Origin: Gaiellales bacterium
GTDB lineage: Bacteria > Actinomycetota > Thermoleophilia > Gaiellales > Gaiellaceae
Reading direction: 5' to 3'
DNA: 64,000 bases
NCBI GenBank assembly: GCA_038236705.1
Contig: JBBRZN010000007.1
Coordinates: 8,741 to 72,740, forward strand
The notes under the pieces were generated by a model. It was given only the letters and a program-made list of their open reading frames with translations. It made no database searches and was not told where the DNA came from. A program made the translations under genes and the position numbers. Positions 317 through 22,493 of this stretch are shown piece by piece (position 1 is the stretch's first letter; every line of letters starts with the position of its first letter).

Positions 317-703
317 TCAGCCGAGGACGGTCAGATTCCAGCGCGGGCGGCACGGGCGATCGAAGCCCATCAGCAGGATCCGCTGCCACCGGCCGAGGCT
401 GAGCTCGCCGTCGCGGAAGGGAATCTGCTCGCTGCGCGGGCCGAGCAGCCCGCAGAGCAGCCGCTCCCGCTCGCGCTCCTCCTGGGGCACGAGGCGCGTG
501 AGCAGGTCCTCGAGATCCGAGAAAAAGCCGGTTTCACGTTCCTGCACCCGCACCAGAGCGACGTCGTCCAGCGGCGAGACGTAGGCGATCCCGCTCGCGT
601 GGCCCGCCCCTGCGAGCTCCCGCTTCACGTCGTTGGTGATGTCGAGCACAGTGAGCGACGGCAGCGCCGAGGCAATTGAGTACGGGACCTCGACGCTGGT
701 CAT
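317..703 (-). CDS. YjbQ/UPF0047 family protein (secondary thiamine-phosphate synthase-like)
   Basis: ORF 317..703. The segments LDITNDVKRE..GIAYVS..FRDGELSLGRWQRILLMGFD resemble the YjbQ family as I know it. Its ATG overlaps the ispH stop (ATGA at 700-703). Confidence 0.7.
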   Translation of the reverse strand: MTSVEVPYSIASALPSLTVLDITNDVKRELAGAGHASGIAYVSPLDDVALVRVQERETGFFSDLEDLLTRLVPQEERERERLLCGLLGPRSEQIPFRDGELSLGRWQRILLMGFDRPCRPRWNLTVLG

Positions 704-1638
704 GCGGTGGTCACTTCCCGCGGAAGGCGGAAGCTGACGTTCTCCCGGGCCACCTCGACCTCACCGAGCTCGTCGAAGCCGAAGGAGGCGAGGCTGCGCA
801 GGACGGCCGCGACGAGCTCCTCGGGAGTGGAGGCGCCCGCGGTCAGGCCGACCGTCTCGTGCCCGGCGAGCAGTTCGGGGTCGAGGCCGCTCTCGCCGTC
901 GATCAGCCGCGCGGTCGCTCCGTTGCGCTCTGCCACCTCCACGAGGCGGCGCGCGTTCGAGCTCGTCTCGGAGCCGATCACGAGGATCAGCGTCGCGCCG
1001 CCCTCCGCCAGCGCCTTGACCGCGTCCTGGCGGTTCTGGGTCGCATAGCAGATGTCGTCGGCGGCAGGCCGCTTCAGGTCGCCGAAGCGCTCTCCGAGCG
1101 CGTCCACGGTCTCGGCGACGTCGTCGAGCGAGAGCGTCGTCTGCGTGATCACCGCGATCGGCTTGCCGCCGGAGTCCAGCTTCGCCGCGTCCTCGGGCGA
1201 CTCGATCACGACCGTGTCCTCCGGCCGCTCGCCGCGGGTGCCGATCACCTCGACGTGATCGGCGTGGCCGACGAGCGCGACGAGGTGGCCGCTGTCGGCG
1301 TAACGCCGGGCCTCCGCGTGCACCTTCGAGACGAGCGGGCAGACCGCGTCCACCACGACGAGCCCGCGGCTCTCGCAGGTCTGCCGCACCGACGGCGCGA
1401 CGCCGTGCGCGGAGAGCACGCAGATCGCCCCGGGCGGAATCTCGTCCTCGTGGTCGACGAACACCGCGCCGAGCCGCTCGAGCCGCTTGACCACGTGGTC
1501 GTTGTGCACGATCTGGTGGCGGACGTAGACCGGCGCGCCGTGCTTCTCCAGCAGGATCTCCACGATCTCGATCGCGCGGTCGACTCCGGCGCAGAAGGAG
1601 CGAGGGGCGGCGAGGAGGACCTGGCCTACGAGGACCAC
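700..1638 (-). CDS. ispH: 4-hydroxy-3-methylbut-2-enyl diphosphate reductase
   Basis: The C-terminal 312 aa of ORF 700..2256 carry the three conserved Cys contexts: PRSFCAGVDRAIE, AVCPLVSKVH and ICYATQNRQ. GTG at 1638 is the likely start; the upstream part of the ORF is Arg/Pro-rich shadow sequence. Confidence 0.9.
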   Translation of the reverse strand: MVLVGQVLLAAPRSFCAGVDRAIEIVEILLEKHGAPVYVRHQIVHNDHVVKRLERLGAVFVDHEDEIPPGAICVLSAHGVAPSVRQTCESRGLVVVDAVCPLVSKVHAEARRYADSGHLVALVGHADHVEVIGTRGERPEDTVVIESPEDAAKLDSGGKPIAVITQTTLSLDDVAETVDALGERFGDLKRPAADDICYATQNRQDAVKALAEGGATLILVIGSETSSNARRLVEVAERNGATARLIDGESGLDPELLAGHETVGLTAGASTPEELVAAVLRSLASFGFDELGEVEVARENVSFRLPREVTTA

Positions 1639-2210
1639 CCCTTCGCCGCTGCGCCGAGCCGGTCGAGCGCGCGCTTCGCGTCGGAGGCGGCGCGGGCGAA
1701 GCCGCGAGGCTCTCGCGCGAAGGCGCGGACGAGGCCGGGCCAGTCGTAGGCGCCGGCCGGCTTCACCGAGTCGCAGATTCCGTGCAGCGTCCGCTCGGGG
1801 GTGTCGCTGACCGCCCGCAGGACGCCGCGCAGACGTCCGCTCCGGGCCAGCGGCCCGCTCTCGAGATCGACCGCGTCGGCGCCGGTCAGCTCGTGCAGCC
1901 GGCGGCGCTCGGCCGGGTCGTCCACGACCTCGTCGGAGGCAAGCATCGTCACGGCCTCTGCGCCCGGGACGCCGAGCGGCCCGCCCTCCCAGAGCACCGA
2001 GCCCTCCCGGTCCACCACCCGCGTCGCGTCGAGGACGGTGCCGGAGGCGAGGCCGTCGCGCAAGGCGCCGGCGAGGCCGAACGAGACGACAGGCCCCTCG
2101 GGCACGCCGTTCGCCGCGCCGAGCCCGACGAGTGCCGAGCGCGCACCGGCGCGGCGAGCGACCCGCCGCTCCGCCGTTGTGGCGCAGGCGAAGAGTGGGT
2201 CGGCGGGCAG
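1626..2210 (-). CDS. hpnG: hopanoid-associated phosphorylase HpnG (PNP/UDP family)
   Basis: The last ~195 aa of ORF 1626..3182 contain VVSFGLAGALRDGLASGTVL and ADAVDLESGP. The gene sits between hpnH and ispH, as in known hopanoid clusters. No ATG/GTG/TTG is in frame near the N-terminus, so CTG at 2210 is only a best guess. Confidence 0.6.
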   Translation of the reverse strand: MPADPLFACATTAERRVARRAGARSALVGLGAANGVPEGPVVSFGLAGALRDGLASGTVLDATRVVDREGSVLWEGGPLGVPGAEAVTMLASDEVVDDPAERRRLHELTGADAVDLESGPLARSGRLRGVLRAVSDTPERTLHGICDSVKPAGAYDWPGLVRAFAREPRGFARAASDAKRALDRLGAAAKGWSS

Positions 2211-2362
2211 CGTTGCCGGTTTCCGGGCGCGCGAAAAGCGAGCCAGGGGAGGACATAGGGAGTGCCCATGCTCCGTTGCATGGGCGCGACTGAGGACGCT
2301 GCCTGGCGAAGTCTTTGCAGCCGCACGGGAACCGGTGGACGTTGTTCGCCGGCCCACTGCTA
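2192..2362 (+). repeat. degenerate third copy (C) of the ~160-bp TIR/hairpin element
   Basis: The left end AGAGTGGGTCGGCGG matches AGAGGGGTTGGCGG of copy B. The core TAGGGAG-GCCCATGC/GCATGGGC hairpin-CGACTGAGGACGC lies at 2255-2299, with the same ~70-nt spacing from the left end as in copies A and B. The right end is poorly conserved. Confidence 0.45.
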
Positions 2363-3364
2363 CCCCGTCAGCGTCCACGCCGCGCTGCGCACGGTTTCCC
2401 TGACGCTGCCGGTCGCCTCGAAGGCTGCCGATGGCTCGAAGCCGGAATGGATCGCGCAGTGCTCGCAGCGCGCGTCGTTGCCGGGCCCGTACTCCTCCCA
2501 CTCGATCCCGTCCAGCAGCGCCTCGTAGGTCGGGAAGATCCCGTCGGTGAGCAGGTAGCACGGGCCTTTCCAGCCGTACGGGTTGCGCGTGATCGAGCCC
2601 CAGGGCGCGCAGGCGAGCTTGCGGTCGCCGGTCAGGAAGTCCTGGTAGATGGGGCTCGCCAGCCAGCGGTAGCCGTTCTGGCGCGCGGCCGACCGGATGA
2701 CGCGGAACTTCTCCTCGTGCTCGGCGCGCGTCATCGTCAGGTTCGGGTCGATCTGCGAGTACTGGTAGCCCGGCGCGACGAGCATCCCGTCGATCCCGAC
2801 ATCGTCCGTGAGGTAGCCCATCATCTCGACCACCTCGGCGGGATCGGTCTCCTTGAAGATCGTCGTGTTCGTGGTGACGCGGAAACCGGCTTCGCGCGCC
2901 TTGCGGATCGCGTCGACGGCGACGTCCCACAGGCCCGGGTAGTCGCAGATGTAGTCGTGGATCTCGCGCATCCCGTCGAGGTGCACGACGAAGGTCAGGC
3001 GCTTGTTCGGCTCGAAGACGTGCAGGAACTGCTCCAGTCGGAGCGCGTTGGTGCAGAGCTCGATCGTCTTGTTCAGCTCGAGGAACCCTGCGACCACCTC
3101 CTCGATGCCCTTGAAGACGAGCGGCTCGCCGCCGCAGATCGAGACGACGGGCGCCGGGCACTGCTCGCCGGCGTCGACGCACTCCTCGACCGAGAGGCGC
3201 GCCTTGTTCGACTCGTACTCCCGGATCTTCCCGCAGCCGATGCAGGCGATGTTGCAGGCGAGCGTCGGCTCGAGCATCAGGACGAGCGGGTACCGCTCGC
3301 CCTTGCGCTGCTGCTGCGTCACGTAGCGGGCGATCTGAACGGTGGGAGCGAGCGGAAACTTCAT
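2360..3364 (-). CDS. hpnH: adenosyl-hopene transferase, radical SAM
   Basis: ORF 2360..3364 has the CxxxCxxC motif (ACNIACIGC) and reads full length like HpnH. It lies immediately downstream of shc, with a 4-nt overlap at 3361-3364. Confidence 0.9.
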   Translation of the reverse strand: MKFPLAPTVQIARYVTQQQRKGERYPLVLMLEPTLACNIACIGCGKIREYESNKARLSVEECVDAGEQCPAPVVSICGGEPLVFKGIEEVVAGFLELNKTIELCTNALRLEQFLHVFEPNKRLTFVVHLDGMREIHDYICDYPGLWDVAVDAIRKAREAGFRVTTNTTIFKETDPAEVVEMMGYLTDDVGIDGMLVAPGYQYSQIDPNLTMTRAEHEEKFRVIRSAARQNGYRWLASPIYQDFLTGDRKLACAPWGSITRNPYGWKGPCYLLTDGIFPTYEALLDGIEWEEYGPGNDARCEHCAIHSGFEPSAAFEATGSVRETVRSAAWTLTG

Positions 3365-9968: not shown

Positions 9969-11150
9969 GTGCAGGGCCGCCGCGAAGTCCTCGCCGTCGG
10001 CCTCGTCTGGCTCGTCTGGCTCGGGGCCGTCCTCCTGACGGTTGCGGTCGGACTGGCCGCCGGCGCGTACACCTTGGCGCCGGGATGGTCGATCCACCGC
10101 GGGCTCTGGCCGCTCTTCGCGTGGGACTACAACTGGTACCACTTCGTCGCCTACGGCGGCTACCCGGACGCGCAGGGCGGCCGGCAGTACGCGTTCTTCC
10201 CCCTCTGGCCGCTGCTGCTCCGCTTGTCCGGCTCGATTCCAGACGTGGTCGCGGCCGCCGCGTTGGCGTGGGCGGGGAGCGCGGCGGCGTTCTTCGGCGT
10301 GGCAGAGGGCACGCCGCAGGCCCGGTTGCGGTCGGCGCTGGCGCTGGCCTGCTGGCCCGGTTCGTTCGTGCTCGCGGTGGCCTACCCCGACGCGGTCGCG
10401 CTCGCGGCGGCGGCCTGGGCAGCGGCGCTCGCGCTCCGGGGCCGGTTGCTCGCGGCGGGCCTCGTGGGCGCGGTCGCTGCGCTCGCCCGGCCGAGCGGCG
10501 TCCTGATCGCGCTGCCGCTCGCCTGGCTCGCCTGGGCCAAGGGGCCCCGCGCCTGGATCGGCGCGGCGGCTCCGGTCGCCGCGGCGGCCGCCGTAGAGGC
10601 GTACTTCTGGTCGCACAGCGACAACCCGAGGGTCTTCTTCGACGCTCAGCGCCAGTGGGGCCGCGGTGGGCCGGGCCGCTTCGGCGACTGGACCGGCCAC
10701 CTCCTCGACGTGCTCGAGCGCCACGGACTGCTGATCGCGCTGCTCGCCGTGGTCGTCGTGACCGCAATCGTGCTCGCCTGGCGGCGATTCGGCCTGTGGC
10801 CGACCGCGGCGATCGCCTACGCCTGCGCGGTCCCGCTCCTCCTCGCCGCGACGCAGAGCCTCGAGGGCTTCGTCGACAGCGTCCGCGCTGCACTCATCCT
10901 GCCGCTGCTCGCGGTGCTCTGGCGGCTTGGTCCTCGCTACCGGCCCTGGGCGGCCTTCGCGACGGTGGTCGTCGGCTTGCTGCTCCTCTCCGGAACGATG
11001 CAGAGCTTCGGCCGGCAGAGCCTGTTCGCGTTCCCGATCTTCTGGGCGATCGCGGAGGGGCCGCGCTGGCTGCGCTACCCGCCGCTGGCCGTGGTCGGCT
11101 TCGCCGGGAACCTCGGGCTCGCGCTGCTCCTCACGCGGTACGCCCCTTAG
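9969..11150 (+). CDS. integral membrane mannosyltransferase-like protein (PIG-V/GT-C type)
   Basis: 393 aa with about 10 hydrophobic segments and the N-terminal motif WDYNWYHFVAYGGY..YAFFPLWPLLLR, typical of PIG-V-like GT-C enzymes. GTG start. Confidence 0.65.
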   Translation: MQGRREVLAVGLVWLVWLGAVLLTVAVGLAAGAYTLAPGWSIHRGLWPLFAWDYNWYHFVAYGGYPDAQGGRQYAFFPLWPLLLRLSGSIPDVVAAAALAWAGSAAAFFGVAEGTPQARLRSALALACWPGSFVLAVAYPDAVALAAAAWAAALALRGRLLAAGLVGAVAALARPSGVLIALPLAWLAWAKGPRAWIGAAAPVAAAAAVEAYFWSHSDNPRVFFDAQRQWGRGGPGRFGDWTGHLLDVLERHGLLIALLAVVVVTAIVLAWRRFGLWPTAAIAYACAVPLLLAATQSLEGFVDSVRAALILPLLAVLWRLGPRYRPWAAFATVVVGLLLLSGTMQSFGRQSLFAFPIFWAIAEGPRWLRYPPLAVVGFAGNLGLALLLTRYAP

Positions 11151-11310
11151 AGGGCTTGGCGGAACCTCGCTCGTCCTCGGGGTGCTCTGCTCGTTCCGAG
11201 ACAGGGACGCAGGGAGTGCCGATAGCCGTAGCTATCGGTGCGACTGAGGACGCCGTATCGGGGCGGGCAGGGCGGCCCGAGGGCACAGACTAGGTTTCGT
11301 CAAGCCCTCT
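11149..11310 (+). repeat. ~160-bp TIR-bounded element with central covarying hairpin, copy A
   Basis: AGAGGGCTTGGCGGAA...TTTCGTCAAGCCCTCT are imperfect terminal inverted repeats. The core CAGGGAG-TGCCGATAGC/GCTATCGGTG-CGACTGAGGACGC lies at 11210-11254. The element aligns along its length to 22333-22493. Confidence 0.75.
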
Positions 11311-11848
11311 TGGCGCGCTCGCGATAGGCGGCGGCCGCGATGCGATCGGCGCAGAGCTGGCAGCAGTAGCGGCGGCTGCGGTTGCGGGAGCGATCGAGAT
11401 AGACGCAGCGGCAGGGGAGCGCGTCACAGACGCCGAAGCGCTCCCAGCCTTCGGTCTGGATTGCAACGAGCAGCGCTGCGGCGACCCGCGGCGCGAGCCG
11501 GTCGGCGAGGTCGCGCGCCCGCCGGGGCTCGTAGTCGAAGCGCCAGCCCTCCTTGCCGGGCCGGAGCTGAGGCACCGATTCGGCGAGCAGGTCGTTCAGG
11601 ATCTCGACGGCCTCGGCCTCGGTCTCGGCCTCGAAGACGCTGCGCACGCGTCGGCGCAACGAGCGCACGCGCTTGAGATCCCCTTCCGCGGCAACGCGCG
11701 CCTCCCGCTCGAGCCCGTGCTGCTCGAGGAACTCGCGCAGGTTGCCAACGCCGCTCAGGAACTCAGGCTCGTCGTCGAGGACGTCCCACGTGTTAACGAG
11801 GCCGACGGCCAGGTCGATCTCCCGCTGCTGCAGATTTCCACCGTTCAT
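11300..11848 (-). CDS. CGNR zinc-finger domain protein (ABATE + zf-CGNR)
   Basis: The C-terminal CDALPCRCVYLDRSRNRSRRYCCQLCADR matches the CGNR zinc-finger pattern. The last codons and the stop lie inside repeat A. Confidence 0.8.
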   Translation of the reverse strand: MNGGNLQQREIDLAVGLVNTWDVLDDEPEFLSGVGNLREFLEQHGLEREARVAAEGDLKRVRSLRRRVRSVFEAETEAEAVEILNDLLAESVPQLRPGKEGWRFDYEPRRARDLADRLAPRVAAALLVAIQTEGWERFGVCDALPCRCVYLDRSRNRSRRYCCQLCADRIAAAAYRERAKRA

Positions 11849-20467: not shown

Positions 20468-20540
20468 AGCCGACGCGCGGATTCGAACCGCGGACCCCTT
20501 CATTACGAGTGAAGTGCTCTACCAACTGAGCTACGTCGGC
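20468..20540 (-). tRNA. tRNA-Thr (anticodon CGT)
   Basis: The reverse complement GCCGACGTAGCTCAGTTGGTAGAGCACTTCACTCGTAATGAAGGGGTCCGCGGTTCGAATCCGCGCGTCGGCT folds as a cloverleaf with a 7-bp acceptor stem, anticodon loop CTCGTAA and T-loop GGTTCGAATCC. CCA is not encoded. Confidence 0.93.
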
Positions 20541-20590: not shown

Positions 20591-20959
20591 ATGCTCCGTC
20601 TCGTCGTCGCCTGGGCGATCAACGCGGCCGCGCTCTGGCTCGCCGACGCGCTCTTCGAGAGCGTTCGGATCGACGGCTGGAAGGCCTACCTGATCGGCGC
20701 CGCGGTGCTCGGGATCGCCAACGGGATCATCAAGCCGGTGCTCATGTTCCTGACCTTCCCGCTGATCGTGCTCACGCTCGGCGTGTTCATGCTCGTGATC
20801 AACATCGCGATGCTGGCGCTGGCCGAGTGGATCGCGCCCAACTTCGCGATCACCGGCTTCTGGAGCTACGTGGGCACCGTCGTGATCATCTGGCTCGTCA
20901 ACTGGGTCGCCCAAACGGCGCTCGACGCGCTCGAGAGCCCGCGCACGCGACTCGCCTAA
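20591..20959 (+). CDS. phage holin family IV / DUF360 membrane protein
   Basis: 122 aa with 4 TM segments and the motifs GAAVLGIANGIIKPVLMFLTFPLIVLTLGVFMLVINIAML. Confidence 0.75.
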   Translation: MLRLVVAWAINAAALWLADALFESVRIDGWKAYLIGAAVLGIANGIIKPVLMFLTFPLIVLTLGVFMLVINIAMLALAEWIAPNFAITGFWSYVGTVVIIWLVNWVAQTALDALESPRTRLA

Positions 20960-20977
20960 CGCACGCGACTCGCCTAA
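20942..20977 (+). repeat. perfect 18-bp tandem duplication CGCACGCGACTCGCCTAA x2
   Basis: Units at 20942-20959 and 20960-20977. The first unit is the last 18 nt, including the stop, of the holin-family gene. The second ends in the TAA that flanks the IS. Confidence 0.9.
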
Positions 20978-21049
20978 GAACTCATTTCTGAATTAAGGGA
21001 CCCGCCTGCTAGCGACGAAGCCATTGGCATCCGTCGTCAAGCTAAGGGG

Positions 21050-21870
21050 GTGCCGATGGCCGCCGCGCCGTGGATCGTCTCGGACGAGCTGTGGAATTTG
21101 GTCGAGTCGCTCTTGCCGAAGCGGGAACGCCGTTTTCGTTATCCGGGCCGCAAGCGCTTGCCCGATCGGCAAGCGTTGCAGGGGATTCTGTTTGTGCTCC
21201 ACACCGGGATCGCCTGGCAGCATCTGCCGGCCGAGCTCGGCTTCGGCTCAGGGGTGACGTGCTGGCGTCGCCTCGACGAGTGGCAACGGGCTGGCGTCTG
21301 GGGGCGGCTGCACCAGCTGCTGTTGACGCGGCTACAGGCCCCAGGCGAGCTCGAGTGGTCGAGGGCGATCGTCGACTCGAGCCAGGTGCAGGCGAAAAAG
21401 GGGGCGGCGAGACGGGCCCGAGCCCGGTCGACAGAGGCCGTCCTGGCTCCAAGCACCACCTCCTCGTCGACCAGAAGGGGATCCCGCTCGCCTTCGCTCT
21501 CATCGGCGCGAACCGCAACGATGTCACGCAGCTGATCCCGCTCGTCGACGCGGTGCCGGCGGTACGCGGCATGGTTGGCCGACCGCGTCGGCGGCCCCAA
21601 TGCGTGATCGCCGACCGCGGCTACGACCACGACAAGTACCGGAAGCTGCTCCGGAAGCGGGGGATCAAGCCGGTGATCGCCCGTCGCCAGACCCAGCACG
21701 GCTCCGGCTTGGGCCGCTACCGCTGGGTCGTTGAGCGCACTCGCCTGGCTGCACAACTTCAAGCGCCTGCTCGTCCGCTATGAGCGGCGCGCCGACATCC
21801 ACCGCGCCCTGCTCGGGCTCGCCTGCTGCCTTGTCTGCTTCCGCCGGCTCACGAACCTCACGCTCGGATG
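21050..21870 (+). CDS. IS5/IS427-type DDE transposase (orfA 21050-21535, orfB frame to 21783; -1 slippage at AAAAAG 21395-21400; extra frame disruption near 21737-21742)
   Basis: orfA reads WIVSDELWNLVESLLP..GIAWQHLPAELGFGSGVTCWRRL. orfB reads GPSPVDRGRPGSKHHLLVDQKGIPLAF..GANRNDV..IADRGYDHDKYR..RWVVERT. The expected tail AWLHNFKRLLVRYERRADIHRALLGLACCLVCFRRL is in a third frame ending at 21870. Confidence 0.8.
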
Positions 21871-21894
21871 AGGGCCTGGCGACCCAGCATGGGG

Positions 21895-22296
21895 CTATCC
21901 GTCGTGCGGCGAGGAGCCGTGGATCTGTACCAAGAGCCAGCGGCCGTCGCGCTTCTCGCAGACTGCGCTCATGCGATACGGGTGCTTCTCCTCACGCCCT
22001 TCCGCCGCCGCGGTCTCCGCCCCCTCCGCAAGAAGCCATCCCACTGCCCCCGCAGCAGAGACGTCACGGCGGTCCCAGGTCCAGGAGTACGTCGTCGTCC
22101 CCCGCGCGTAGCGATGAAGAAAGGCCCCCATCTCCTCGGGGCCGCGAAGAAGCGATTCCTCGGACGTGACCATCACGATGTCGGCATCCGGCGCGAAGAG
22201 CTGCATGACACCCTCGGCATCCCGCGCCGAGAACGCGGAGCAGAAACGCTCCAGGATCTCAAGCAACGCGGCCTCCGTCTCCACATCCGCCCTCAA
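21895..22296 (-). CDS. NTF2-like / SnoaL-like (DUF4440-type) protein, inside the IS
   Basis: 133 aa. LLEILERFCSAFSARDAEGVMQLFAPDADIV...GWLLAEG...RMSAVCEKRDGRWLLVQIH fits the NTF2-fold pattern. TTG start at 22296. Confidence 0.65.
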   Translation of the reverse strand: MRADVETEAALLEILERFCSAFSARDAEGVMQLFAPDADIVMVTSEESLLRGPEEMGAFLHRYARGTTTYSWTWDRRDVSAAGAVGWLLAEGAETAAAEGREEKHPYRMSAVCEKRDGRWLLVQIHGSSPHDG

Positions 22297-22332
22297 GACG
22301 AGGCATTCTCGCTCTTTCTGAAATGAGTTCTA

Positions 22333-22493
22333 AGAGGGGTTGGCGGAATACCGCTCGTCGCCGGGGCGCGATGGTCGTTCCGAGGCAAGGACGCAGGGAG
22401 CGTTCGTACCTGGAGTACGGGCGCGACTGAGGACGCGGCATCGGGGCGAGCAGCGCGTCCCGGCGGCTCAGCCGTTATTTCGTCAAGCCCTCT
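22333..22493 (+). repeat. ~160-bp TIR-bounded element with central covarying hairpin, copy B
   Basis: AGAGGGGTTGGCGGAA...TTTCGTCAAGCCCTCT termini, with core CAGGGAG-CGTTCGTAC/GTACGGGCG-CGACTGAGGACGC. Collinear with copy A. Confidence 0.75.

Follow-up and report, generated by a model that had tools for sequence, protein, structure and literature searches.

A probable MITE family of the Thermoleophilia with a conserved, folded core

Background

Three collinear repeats of ~160 bp, bounded by terminal inverted repeats (TIRs), are dispersed along the 64,000 nucleotides of a Gaiellales contig that were analysed here (the window). They raise the question of whether such repeats are simply decaying non-autonomous TIR transposons (MITEs) or carry a structure that is maintained by selection and, if the latter, in which molecule and to what end. 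A reading of the sequence alone had proposed that the copies share their TIRs and two invariant blocks, that the hairpin between these blocks differs in sequence from copy to copy while its pairing is preserved, and that the element is a selected structure, matching neither a passively decaying MITE nor any recognisable RNA family or insertion sequence (IS) end. The Thermoleophilia are abundant soil bacteria that have hardly been cultured, and no specific repeat family or non-coding RNA has apparently been described for them; a full-text literature search for the core sequences discussed below returned unrelated primers only, and nothing of relevance emerged from a literature search on repeats and MITEs in the Thermoleophilia.

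Three copies in the window

All three copies are present on the + strand, within 1-4 nt of where the sequence-only reading had placed them. Their parts are the following.

2194-2358, + strand: copy 3, 165 bp long and assigned to a different subfamily (type II arms; TIR AGTGGGTCGGCGG)
2251-2262 (GGACATAGGGAG) and 2287-2299, + strand: core blocks of copy 3
2263-2286, + strand: apical hairpin of copy 3
11147-11149: left target-site duplication of copy 1, TTA (the empty site L203 reads ..CCCCTTA/GAACGC.., the slash marking the point of insertion)
11150-11309, + strand: copy 1, a complete 160-bp element, seen as an insertion by comparison with the empty sites L203 and L208 (covariance model R1, 84.9 bits)
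11150-11169, + strand: left TIR of copy 1, A-type, GAGGGCTTGGCGGAACCTCG
11205-11216, + strand: core 5' block of copy 1, GGACGCAGGGAG
11217-11240, + strand: variable apical hairpin of copy 1, TGCCGATAGC-CGTA-GCTATCGGTG
11241-11253, + strand: core 3' block of copy 1, CGACTGAGGACGC
11290-11309, + strand: right TIR of copy 1
11310-11312: right target-site duplication of copy 1, now TTG, recognised by comparison with the empty sites
22334-22492, + strand: copy 2, a complete 159-bp element (covariance model R1, 92.1 bits)
22389-22400 and 22424-22436, + strand: core blocks of copy 2
22401-22423, + strand: apical hairpin of copy 2

With a covariance model built on the core, copies 2, 1 and 3 reach 92, 85 and 65 bits (E between 1e-22 and 1e-14), and the next-best match in the window only 12.5 bits (E 0.46). 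The TIRs that had been proposed for all of the copies, AGAGGG(C/G)TTGGCGGAA and TTTCGTCAAGCCCTCT, are those of copies 1 and 2, whereas copy 3 ends in a different variant (AGTGGGTCGGCGG... and ...CCGGCCCACT). Similarly, of the blocks that had been called invariant, CGACTGAGGACGC is exact in all three copies but GGACGCAGGGAG only in copies 1 and 2, with GGACATAGGGAG as its counterpart in copy 3; the block TCGTTCCGAG is common to copies 1 and 2 only. The apical hairpins of copies 1 to 3, which are 24, 23 and 24 nt long, are indeed of unlike sequence and are paired in all three.

A family spread through the Thermoleophilia

A pattern scan for further copies retrieved at least 120 loci from Thermoleophilia genomes labelled Gaiellaceae, Solirubrobacterales or Thermoleophilaceae, and 8 further copies were found in ~0.9 Mb of flanking sequence. 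Across the family the elements measure 160-170 bp and contain no transposase gene. Any one neighbouring gene family is present at 4 of the 120 listed loci at most, and the plasmid and phage collections that were searched gave no match, while IMG/VR gave one. Rfam 15, applied to the whole window at gathering score, reported tRNA only, and a search with copy 1 at E values up to 10 yielded only chance matches (for example mir-2545, which at 18.6 bits falls far short of its gathering score, 94), in agreement with the earlier impression that no described RNA family is involved.

Folding, covariation and strand polarity

Each of the three copies folds into a rod of ~75 bp in which a constant internal-loop core carries a variable, always paired apical hairpin. 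The central hairpin that had been noticed is thus real, but it is only the tip of a single long hairpin that takes in the entire element. Whole-element folding gives -115 kcal/mol (z -9.2) for copy 1 and -105 kcal/mol (z -8.2) for copy 2, and none of 200 shuffles folds as well. The apical stems differ in sequence, though not as completely as had been claimed: one step, U-A/A-U at stem positions 8-9, hardly varies throughout the family. In the family alignment, compensatory changes are seen at 43 of 49 stem pairs and, in the apical helix (helix 7), at all eight.

Among 61 long copies, the share of cells that pair is 92.8%, whereas shuffles give 67.8% and slid partners 36-43%; double-change cells number 725 as compared with 224, and the observed values were reached by none of 500 shuffles. 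The pairing is also specific to one strand, in that the sense strand is the better folder in 112 of 115 copies (mean gap, 22 kcal/mol), and G:U pairs outnumber A·C mismatches by 224 to 32, with the G:U excess present alike in the outer, inner and apical helices. These results agree with the earlier proposal, and we regard it as very probable that a single-strand structure is under selection. The nature of the selected strand is a separate matter. The most stable mismatches in DNA are G·T, G·A and G·G, and because G:T and G·A are favoured in this way in DNA too, the mismatch evidence does not separate RNA from single-stranded DNA; we give RNA about the same chance of being the selected strand as single-stranded DNA.

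Empty sites and target duplications

Loci L202-L204 (flanking protein 92% identical) and L208 (82%) are empty sites for copy 1, at which two convergent genes overlap by 20 nt. They have a single TTA; in the window, this TTA is followed by the 160-bp insertion and then by TTG. L205 is a deletion remnant that retains only 9 nt of the right end of copy 1 and reads TTT at the place of the right duplication. In the window, the TA of the left duplication and the first G of copy 1 make up the TAG stop codon of a 393-aa gene (ORF end, 11150). On the other side, the right TIR holds the TCA (TGA on the opposite strand) at which a minus-strand gene with an ABATE/zf-CGNR zinc-finger domain now ends, the last base of TTG (11312) falling on a synonymous third codon position in the new tail of that gene.

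Copy 3 lies antisense inside a hopanoid/isoprenoid operon, shc-hpnH-hpnG-ispH, upstream of ispH, from which it follows that in this orientation, at least, the element does not stop transcription. It is absent from five relatives whose radical SAM protein HpnH (hopanoid biosynthesis) is 84-92% identical, and another case of presence and absence is provided by L083 (filled) and L007 (empty). No clean target-site duplication was found for copies 2 and 3. Elsewhere in the family the flanks read TTA..TTA (L008, L016, L073 and L099), TAG..TAG (L079) or, in many copies, CTAG..CTAG, and the terminal bases are complementary at 12 or more of 14 positions in 87 of 115 copies. Insertion occurs at TA-centred sites, often the TAG or TAA stop codons of genes, which are frequent targets because the element ends, G...C, rebuild the stop on both sides.

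Four characteristics of MITEs are thereby found together, namely TIRs, a target duplication, small and dispersed copies that lack a transposase, and presence/absence polymorphism, and we have little doubt that the elements are MITEs. The earlier contrast between a selected structure and a MITE does not hold, since copies 1 and 3 are missing from close relatives and copy 1 is flanked by the TTA/TTG duplication. Taken with the evidence for selection on the fold, this means that the element is a MITE and carries a selected structure.

Kinship of the element ends with IS5-family insertion sequences

The window contains an IS whose right end directly abuts copy 2.

20975-20977 and 22331-22333: TAA, flanking the IS on either side
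20978-22330, + strand: IS5-family insertion sequence with 19-nt TIRs, GAACTCATTTCWGAA (inverted repeat; Pfam DDE_Tnp_1; NCBIfam NF033580)
21056-21870, + strand: transposase coding region of this IS, NF033580 (IS5 family transposase), with its halves in two reading frames

Because a second frame break near the C-terminus accompanies the -1 frameshift site near 21390, the transposase of this particular IS is, from its sequence, probably defective. The same TIR family is found in 46 metagenome relatives of the IS (for example AGAGCTCCTTTCACAATGA and AGAACTCGAATCGGAATGA), with flanks of the form YTA..TAR. Ends of our elements that match these TIRs include those of L028 (AGAGCTCCTTTCAGATTG), L100 (AGAGCTCGAACCAGAATG) and L052 (AGAACTCGTTTCACAATG). 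The match is clear for the B-type and C-type ends, as when AGAGCTCCTTTCAGATTG is set beside the IS end AGAGCTCCTTTCACAATGA, whereas the A-type end in the window has only ~11 of 19 positions and the string ..CGGAATG in common with the IS5 TIRs, and the link of that subfamily to IS5 depends on these. An IS with the A-type TIR GGAGGGTTTGGCGGAA was found neither among the 46 ISs nor in ~1.2 Mb of sequence. Since the outer stems of family members, most clearly those with B-type and C-type ends, belong to the TIR family of IS5-family ISs, the earlier opinion that no IS end is involved is not supported, and the elements have probably been mobilised by the IS5 family. The partner group is one that we take to be IS427-like, with a two-frame transposase and a TA or TNA target.

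None of 80 IS loci has the core module inside the IS, so that the core is apparently not needed by the transposase. A comparison of element polarity with the transposase strand, as judged from the TIR signatures of left and right IS ends (IRL/IRR), gave no clear signal. Two routes by which the module might have come to lie between IS ends were considered and found no support. One is that the module was split between the ends of a full-length IS from which the MITE arose by deletion, and no solo half-modules were found in ~1 Mb. The other is insertion of the module into pre-existing terminator hairpins, and the sole informative empty site (L116 compared with L039) has no hairpin.

The core module

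Throughout the family the core, AAGGACGCAGGGAG ... CGACYGAGGACGC, stays constant while the terminal repeats vary, with CGACYGAGGAC as a family-wide variant of its 3' block. The invariance of the core across the at least 120 loci is imposed by the search pattern. The 8 copies from flanking sequence, in contrast, were recovered by a covariance model that used no sequence pattern; in these the 5' block GGACGCAGGGAG is unchanged, and the departures from the consensus core are one T-to-C change and, in one of the eight, an additional change of GGAC to GGAA.

We read the core as two purine-rich blocks (AAGGACGCAGGGAG and CGACYGAGGACGC) that would face each other across the helix, with an 11-bp hairpin of free sequence on top. 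In the proposed pairing, GGAC would lie opposite GGAC to give G-C, G·A, A·G and C-G, the further steps being one isolated G·A pair, CAG facing CYG and a bulged G; a tandem G·A would adjoin the apical helix. By sequence alone, the tandem GA/GA beside the apical helix fits a kink-turn, whereas the bulge is of 1 nt (one G) and 3 would be expected. A by-eye comparison with the classical kink-turn, the sarcin-ricin/loop E motif and domain IV of SRP RNA gave no consistent register, and a short peptide encoded across the core was rejected on the grounds that the hairpin lengths are not multiples of three. That the core is a binding site for some factor is a possibility to which we give slightly less than even weight. 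Short forms of ~100 nt that lack TIRs also exist, and keep both the core and the strand bias.

What might be selected

The explanation that we favour, with moderate confidence, is an IS5-mobilised MITE that has a structured, probably RNA-level, recognition module as its cargo. The element would be the non-autonomous transposon of an IS5-family IS group, built of three nested parts (IS-family TIRs of ~20 bp, paired arms and the apical module), and IS5-family transposases would catalyse its insertion in trans. Selection keeps one strand folded as a rod and the core unchanged. The folded strand might be an RNA that arises by transcription of the element, and its core might be the docking site for a trans-acting factor, either a protein or an RNase, by which the hairpin would become a defined processing or insulating structure at the ends of genes. 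The TIR-less versions of ~100 nt would represent the same module without transposon ends. A cis-acting role for the RNA is hard to square with the random orientation of the elements relative to flanking genes, as copies in co-directional settings are sense in 21 cases and antisense in 21.

Such indifference to host transcription would suit a purely selfish DNA element, in which the rod and core are needed for transposition itself and have no role as RNA. One strand might fold back as single-stranded DNA or as the arm of a cruciform, the paired TIRs mimicking one double-stranded IS end and the core binding the transposase or a host DNA-bending factor. The gain and loss of copies between close relatives, the substituted core of copy 3, the tolerated deletion in L205 and a mismatch spectrum that fits G·T, G·A and G·G as the stable mismatches of DNA are all consistent with this idea. 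So is a slight tendency of the sense strand to coincide with the C-rich strand of the surrounding DNA (65 against 44; p = 0.055, with flank GC skew as a proxy for replication), which is too weak to be used. We nevertheless consider it unlikely. IS5-family DDE transposases are not known to use single-stranded intermediates, the autonomous ISs have no core, and the TIR-less short forms retain both core and strand bias. A cruciform, moreover, would also expose the poorly pairing bottom strand, and thus gives no reason for a consistent polarity. Diverging ends, a frozen mismatched loop and pairing on one strand are the reverse of what selection driven by a transposase would predict.

Equally doubtful, in our judgment, is the view that the functional unit is the inner hairpin of ~75-100 nt, a structured RNA specific to the Thermoleophilia (protein-docking or catalytic) that is selected in the host and has repeatedly been picked up by IS5-family ends. 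It might, for example, serve at 3' ends as a site of protein binding or of processing, with IS5-type TIRs that are secondary, on the model of a mobile insertion cassette whose passenger is non-coding. Several observations would follow readily from such an origin. The TIR-less short forms are found at distances of 13-45 nt from a stop codon, in most cases where two genes converge; a single core recurs with at least four types of TIR and arm that look unrelated; and in subfamily D ~105 nt are near-identical across species while the outer 17 bp differ. Pairs of elements at the same intergenic site in different species (L020/L035, L074/L115, L014/L046 and L065/L099) have identical cores and arms that have diverged with compensation, but these pairs were pre-selected by the exact core pattern, and ~2 would be expected by chance among 7140 locus pairs. 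Also against a host RNA are the recent and dispensable state of copies 1 and 3 in the window, the long forms' lack of orientation preference, and the failure to find any associated gene family or promoter signal.

A small self-cleaving ribozyme or riboswitch-like aptamer at the tip of the long hairpin is brought to mind by invariant internal loops that are framed by covarying helices, and by a CUGAGGA that fits the CUGANGA box of the hammerhead. The hammerhead was rejected, as both the GAAA box and the three-way junction are missing and the 3' sequence is paired to the 5' arm. Rfam gave no ribozyme or riboswitch match at E values as high as 10, no gene class goes with the element, and the loops, being only 3 bp apart, would not permit docking of the hairpin-ribozyme type, all of which makes a catalytic or ligand-binding tip very improbable. 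An ordinary bidirectional intrinsic terminator or a chance palindrome, which the very stable hairpins and their location at 3' ends and between convergent genes might suggest, is scarcely credible in view of consensus scans that detected neither promoters nor U-tract terminators in or near the elements, the position of copy 3 within an operon upstream of ispH, an invariant 25-nt core at 120 or more unrelated loci, and ends that are TIRs with target duplications.

Three known classes of hairpin were rejected as identities for the element: integron attC sites, because its stem bases are IS-type TIRs or variable sequence, where R''/R' core sites (RYYYAAC/GTTRRRY) would be expected, and its copies are dispersed singly with no arrays; retron msr-msd, because no gene family recurs beside it, where a reverse transcriptase would be expected; and REP/REPIN sequences with their RAYT, because it is a 160-nt palindrome with a conserved tip, as against the 20-40 nt and conserved GTAG head of those repeats, and, among the loci listed, has no recurring neighbour gene, where a Y1 transposase would be expected.

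Implications

For genome annotation, the family explains assembly breaks at these sites, as well as the different stop codons, C-terminal tails and operon gene overlaps that are seen between close relatives, and the element is a ready marker for strain typing. As the target is only 25 nt, the question of what the interior of a MITE does is therefore testable here. Should the core bind a factor or undergo processing, it would constitute a new recognition motif between RNA and a protein or between RNA and an RNase.

Comparison with known repeat families

The Thermoleophilia element is an undescribed one of the Correia, ERIC and bcr1 kind. It resembles the Correia elements of Neisseria, which duplicate TA, in being a small TIR MITE with a long hairpin, a location at gene ends, a conserved internal site and a polymorphic presence. 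The family keeps the same centre across a bacterial class while its TIRs diverge, unlike the Correia elements, and its ends match a resident IS5-family group, whereas Correia elements have no known cognate transposase. Correia elements (CREE/NEMIS) are TIR MITEs of ~100-160 bp that lie at gene ends, are co-transcribed, form long hairpins, contain a functional site in their interior and vary in presence from strain to strain (PMC3184786). That internal site is an IHF site in double-stranded DNA, together with promoters, in contrast to the mismatched, strand-specific internal loop and covarying hairpin described here.

The ERIC/IRU repeats of the Enterobacteriaceae are imperfect palindromes of ~127 bp with TA flanks, found in transcribed intergenic regions and conserved across genera, with reported RNA-level effects on mRNA stability (PMC3184786). 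They follow one consensus throughout, whereas the present family has an invariant core, several unrelated types of arm and TIR, and TIR-less forms. The bcr1 repeat differs in its host phylum, in its target site (TTTAT) and in its sequence, and has no identified IS partner. It is said to be a transcribed, mobile repeat of ~155 bp in the Bacillus cereus group, with a predicted RNA structure that is reportedly supported by compensatory changes.

With the IS5-family ISs that encode two-frame transposases, our elements share the TIR family AGAGCTCNTTTCNNAATGA, TA/TNA/CTAG flanks and the same genomes; unlike these ISs, they have no transposase, the sequence in common amounts to ~20 nt per end, and the ISs are without the core. 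REPINs, too, are dispersed intergenic hairpin repeats that evolve as populations and keep their structure on single strands. They conserve the stem (REP units with a GTAG head), vary the loop and depend on a single-copy HUH transposase (RAYT), whereas in the Thermoleophilia element it is the tip that is conserved, and the ends are TIRs of the DDE type with target duplications.

Limits, fold and core of the three copies

The three copies proposed by the sequence-only reading are real, and all of them lie on the forward strand, with limits that have been refined as follows:

11150-11309 (+), copy 1
22334-22492 (+), copy 2
2194-2358 (+), copy 3

Each copy folds into a single long imperfect hairpin, and not merely a central one, at -115 kcal/mol for copy 1 and -105 kcal/mol for copy 2 (z-scores of -9.2 and -8.2, respectively, against dinucleotide shuffles); folded as its reverse strand, copy 1 gets no lower than -82 kcal/mol. 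Near the tip of each copy, (A)AGGACGCAGGGAG lies opposite CGACTGAGGACGC across the helix, and these two purine-rich blocks (the core) are followed by a hairpin of 23-24 nt that, as had been described, is unlike in sequence between copies and paired in every one. Searched with a covariance model of the core (R1), the 64 kb contained exactly the three copies, which scored 92, 85 and 65 bits; the next-best match had 12.5 bits. The earlier failure to recognise a described RNA family is borne out by Rfam 15, in which the element had no match at gathering scores or at E values up to 10 (the sole Rfam match in the window is a tRNA gene at 20468-20540), and a full-text search of the literature found no paper describing the core motif.

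Distribution and variants of the family

A pattern scan with one genome per species yielded at least 120 loci. Among the matches listed, every locus comes from a metagenome-assembled genome; the informative labels are Gaiellaceae or Gaiellales, Solirubrobacterales, and Thermoleophilaceae or Thermoleophilia, and the remaining loci are labelled Actinomycetes or Actinomycetota only. Of loci L008 and L209, one lies on a 3-kb contig assigned to Acidobacteriota, probably through mis-binning, and the other is the single copy present in the IMG/VR viral collection as a whole. Neighbouring genes are unrelated from locus to locus, the most frequent flanking protein family occurring at no more than 4 of the at least 120 loci listed, so that the element is a dispersed repeat, tied to no particular gene as its leader or trailer. 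In ~0.9 Mb of flanks the covariance model found 8 further copies, and the density there is about one copy per 60-100 kb.

Long forms (160-170 nt) carry terminal inverted repeats (TIRs). Short forms (about 100-105 nt) consist of the inner hairpin alone, lack TIRs, occur mainly in Solirubrobacterales and are often separated by 13-45 nt from the stop codons of convergent genes. The TIR-less forms (e.g. L029, L039, L074, L110, L115 and L120) have in common the semi-conserved ends CTGRCG ... CGYCAG and a second conserved internal loop, ..CAAGC.. opposite ..GCGC(A/C)G.., ~14 nt below the core, which is also present in type II long forms, copy 3 included. Two short-form modules stand in direct tandem, 7 nt apart, at L025:3533-3725, and a sub-variant at L167:440-640 and in L072 has a ~40-nt insertion (..GCAGCCGGCGTAGCCGGCCGACGAGCGAAGCGAGGAGTC..) in its 3' arm.

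Empty sites, remnants and insertion targets

The gene adjoining copy 1 encodes a zinc-finger-domain protein (Pfam ABATE, zf-CGNR) with homologues at 92% and 82% identity, and on the contigs of those homologues this gene and a 393-aa gene overlap by 20 nt, with nothing between them. Alignment of the junctions shows that 160 bp have been inserted in the window, with duplication of 3 bp.

Junctions at the site of copy 1 (a slash marks the empty site)
L203, relative, empty: ..GCCCCTTA / GAACGCTCGCGG
L208, relative, empty: ..CTCCCTA / GAGCGCTCTCGG
Window, filled: ..GCCCCTTA, then the element GAGGGCTTGG...CAAGCCCTC, then TTGGCGCGCTCGCG

The right copy of the duplication now reads TTG, the altered base being a synonymous third position in the new gene tail. 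The first G of copy 1 gives the 393-aa gene its TAG stop back, and the C-terminus of the ABATE/zf-CGNR protein has changed from ..RSKGRSA-stop to ..RAKRA-stop. A deletion remnant of copy 1 is found in a third relative (L205:2040-2060), where no more than the last 9 nt remain (AGCCCTCTT of the right TIR) and the flanking protein still ends in the element-derived tail ..RAKRA-stop. Copy 3 is absent from all five relatives examined at its site (84-92% identical), in which 19 nt are shared by hpnH and hpnG. This overlap, within the hopanoid/isoprenoid operon shc-hpnH-hpnG-ispH (window 700-3364, reverse strand, and beyond), is split by copy 3; the hpnH stop in the window is now the TAG at the border of the element, and the start of hpnG must have moved. 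Elsewhere in the fetched set, one and the same site is occupied in L083 and empty in L007.

The element thus inserts at TA or TNA sites, is lost by deletion and rebuilds stop codons. At ~20 loci the upstream ORF terminates at the first TAG of the element, and the G...C ends rebuild TAG on both sides. The harmless TA sites of a high-GC genome are mostly TAG or TAA stops, and elements often lie exactly on stop codons because of the TA-site preference. Divergent, promoter-bearing intergenic regions are avoided (9 cases versus 21-22 for each other arrangement). The element has the defining features of a MITE, that is, a small non-autonomous transposon, so far as these were examined: it has TIRs and a target duplication, is small, encodes no transposase, is dispersed in many copies and is present in some relatives and absent from others. 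There can be little doubt that it is a MITE.

IS5-family ends and a probable partner

20978-22330, IS5-family insertion sequence (IS) of 1353 bp with 19-nt TIRs and a TAA duplication

The right end of this IS touches copy 2. Its transposase (Pfam DDE_Tnp_1; NCBIfam NF033580, IS5 family transposase) lies in two frames, the halves joined at GCGAAAAAGGGG, has a second frame break near the C-terminus and is probably defective. The IS is ~450 bp longer than its relatives of ~905-915 bp, the extra length being a SnoaL-like ORF (21895-22296, reverse strand) between the transposase and the right TIR. Directly abutting its left end is an exact 18-bp tandem duplication (20942-20977; cgcacgcgactcgcctaa twice), the unit of which is the last 18 nt of ORF 20591-20959, TAA stop included. 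The tRNA gene (reverse strand, 72.6 bits) is separated from the IS by ~430 bp and from copy 2 by ~1.8 kb. L191:1-120 is a second side-by-side case: an element with the module is separated by 15 bp from the left end of another IS of the family.

For comparison, 80 transposase relatives were collected from metagenomes, and a TIR pair was obtained for 46 of them. ISs of typical length (about 880-940 bp) have TIRs such as AGAGCTCCTTTCACAATGA, AGAACTCGAATCGGAATGA and AGAGTCCCTAACAAAATGA, with flanks YTA...TAR. The sequence-only reading had recognised no IS end; many long forms have these IS5-family TIR sequences as their outer stems.

IS-like outer stems of long forms at five loci
L028: AGAGCTCCTTTCAGATTG
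L100: AGAGCTCGAACCAGAATG
L052: AGAACTCGTTTCACAATG
L078: AGAGCCTCTAACACAATG
L008: AGTGCGCCTTCCAGTAATG

The flanks of the element match those of the ISs as well (TTA..TTA, TAG..TAG or CTAG..CTAG), and with both ends and targets matching, IS5-family transposases probably mobilise the element in trans. The A-type end of the window copies (GGAGGGTTTGGCGGAATG) has in common with these ISs only the frame AG......TT..CGGAATG, and no IS with an A-type end was present among the 46 ISs with a TIR pair or in ~1.2 Mb of sequence; the IS5-family partner of this subfamily is a putative one.

Selection on pairing in one strand

In an alignment of 61 long forms, RNAalifold predicted 49 pairs, and compensatory changes are seen at 43 of these. 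Paired cells amounted to 92.8%, versus 67.8% for shuffles and 36-43% once the partners had been slid by 1-3 columns, and double-change cells to 725 versus 224; none of 500 shuffles reached the observed values. Covariation well above both controls upholds the earlier proposal of a selected structure. In the outer helix, which is the TIR, it could be explained by two ends fitting one transposase, an argument that is inapplicable to the inner arms and the apical hairpin.

When the strands were folded separately, greater stability was seen for the one with GGACGCAGGGAG in 112 of 115 copies, the mean difference being 22 kcal/mol. On the alignment, G:U outnumbers A·C by 224 to 32 (outer helix 117:16, inner arms 56:12, apical hairpin 43:4), and purine-purine mismatches are commoner than pyrimidine-pyrimidine ones. 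A double-stranded palindrome without single-strand constraint should give equality of these classes, so that pairing is kept on one strand only, and it is very likely that a single-strand structure is under selection.

An invariant core and what might read it

Conservation of pairing is strand-specific and surrounds an invariant core. The TIRs and arms fall into several unrelated-looking types (A, B, C, D and short), and AAGGACGCAGGGAG ... CGACYGAGGACGC is present in every type, the at least 120 loci having been chosen by that pattern. The 8 copies found by the model alone have the core with one T-to-C change, one of them also with GGAC changed to GGAA, and the 5' block of copy 3 has AT for GC. 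In subfamily D, ~105 central nt are near-identical across species and the outer ~17 bp are wholly different yet paired. The core was not found inside ISs (80 IS loci), nor half-modules in about 1 Mb, which argues that the interior of the element is not a leftover of a transposase gene region.

The question raised by the family is what reads the 25-nt core. Its GGAC blocks might face each other as G-C, G·A, A·G and C-G, followed by a single G·A pair, CAG opposite CYG and a bulged G, with a tandem G·A by the 11-bp apical helix; pairs 8 and 9 of this helix are almost always U-A and A-U, and variation at Y makes the middle pair of CAG/CYG either A-U or A·C. The proposed pairing fits the sequence and would account for the stability of just one of the two strands. 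Purine-rich platforms of this sort are typical of protein-recognition sites, and our best guess is that the core is a putative docking or processing site on the transcript, by which an inserted hairpin might be made defined and harmless at gene ends. A live rival is that selection acted on one DNA strand that folds up while the element transposes: the most stable mismatches in DNA, too, are G·T and G·A, and the sense strand is weakly biased towards the locally C-rich strand (65 versus 44, p = 0.055). Against a simple cis-acting RNA role weigh the equal orientation to neighbouring genes (21 antisense versus 21 sense overall, 18 versus 18 among long forms), the absence of promoter-like or U-tract terminator signals in a scan of the elements, and the antisense position of copy 3 within shc-hpnH-hpnG-ispH, an orientation that cannot be a strong terminator.

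Comparison with known systems

The initial observation is confirmed, and the interpretation that this is not a passively decaying MITE is partly supported: the element carries a selected structure, yet empty sites, TIRs and duplications mark it as a MITE, with recognisable IS ends. It lacks the defining features of the hammerhead, attC, the retron, REP/RAYT and the intrinsic terminator. Like bcr1, a bacterial long-hairpin MITE, it folds into one long hairpin, as do Correia, ERIC and RUP, which are MITEs of that kind (review PMC3184786). Its distinguishing trait is the distribution of constraint: the ends, expected to be fixed by the transposase, vary most, and a mismatched internal loop that is missing from the transposase's own IS, and is found without transposon ends as well, is frozen in all Thermoleophilia genomes sampled.
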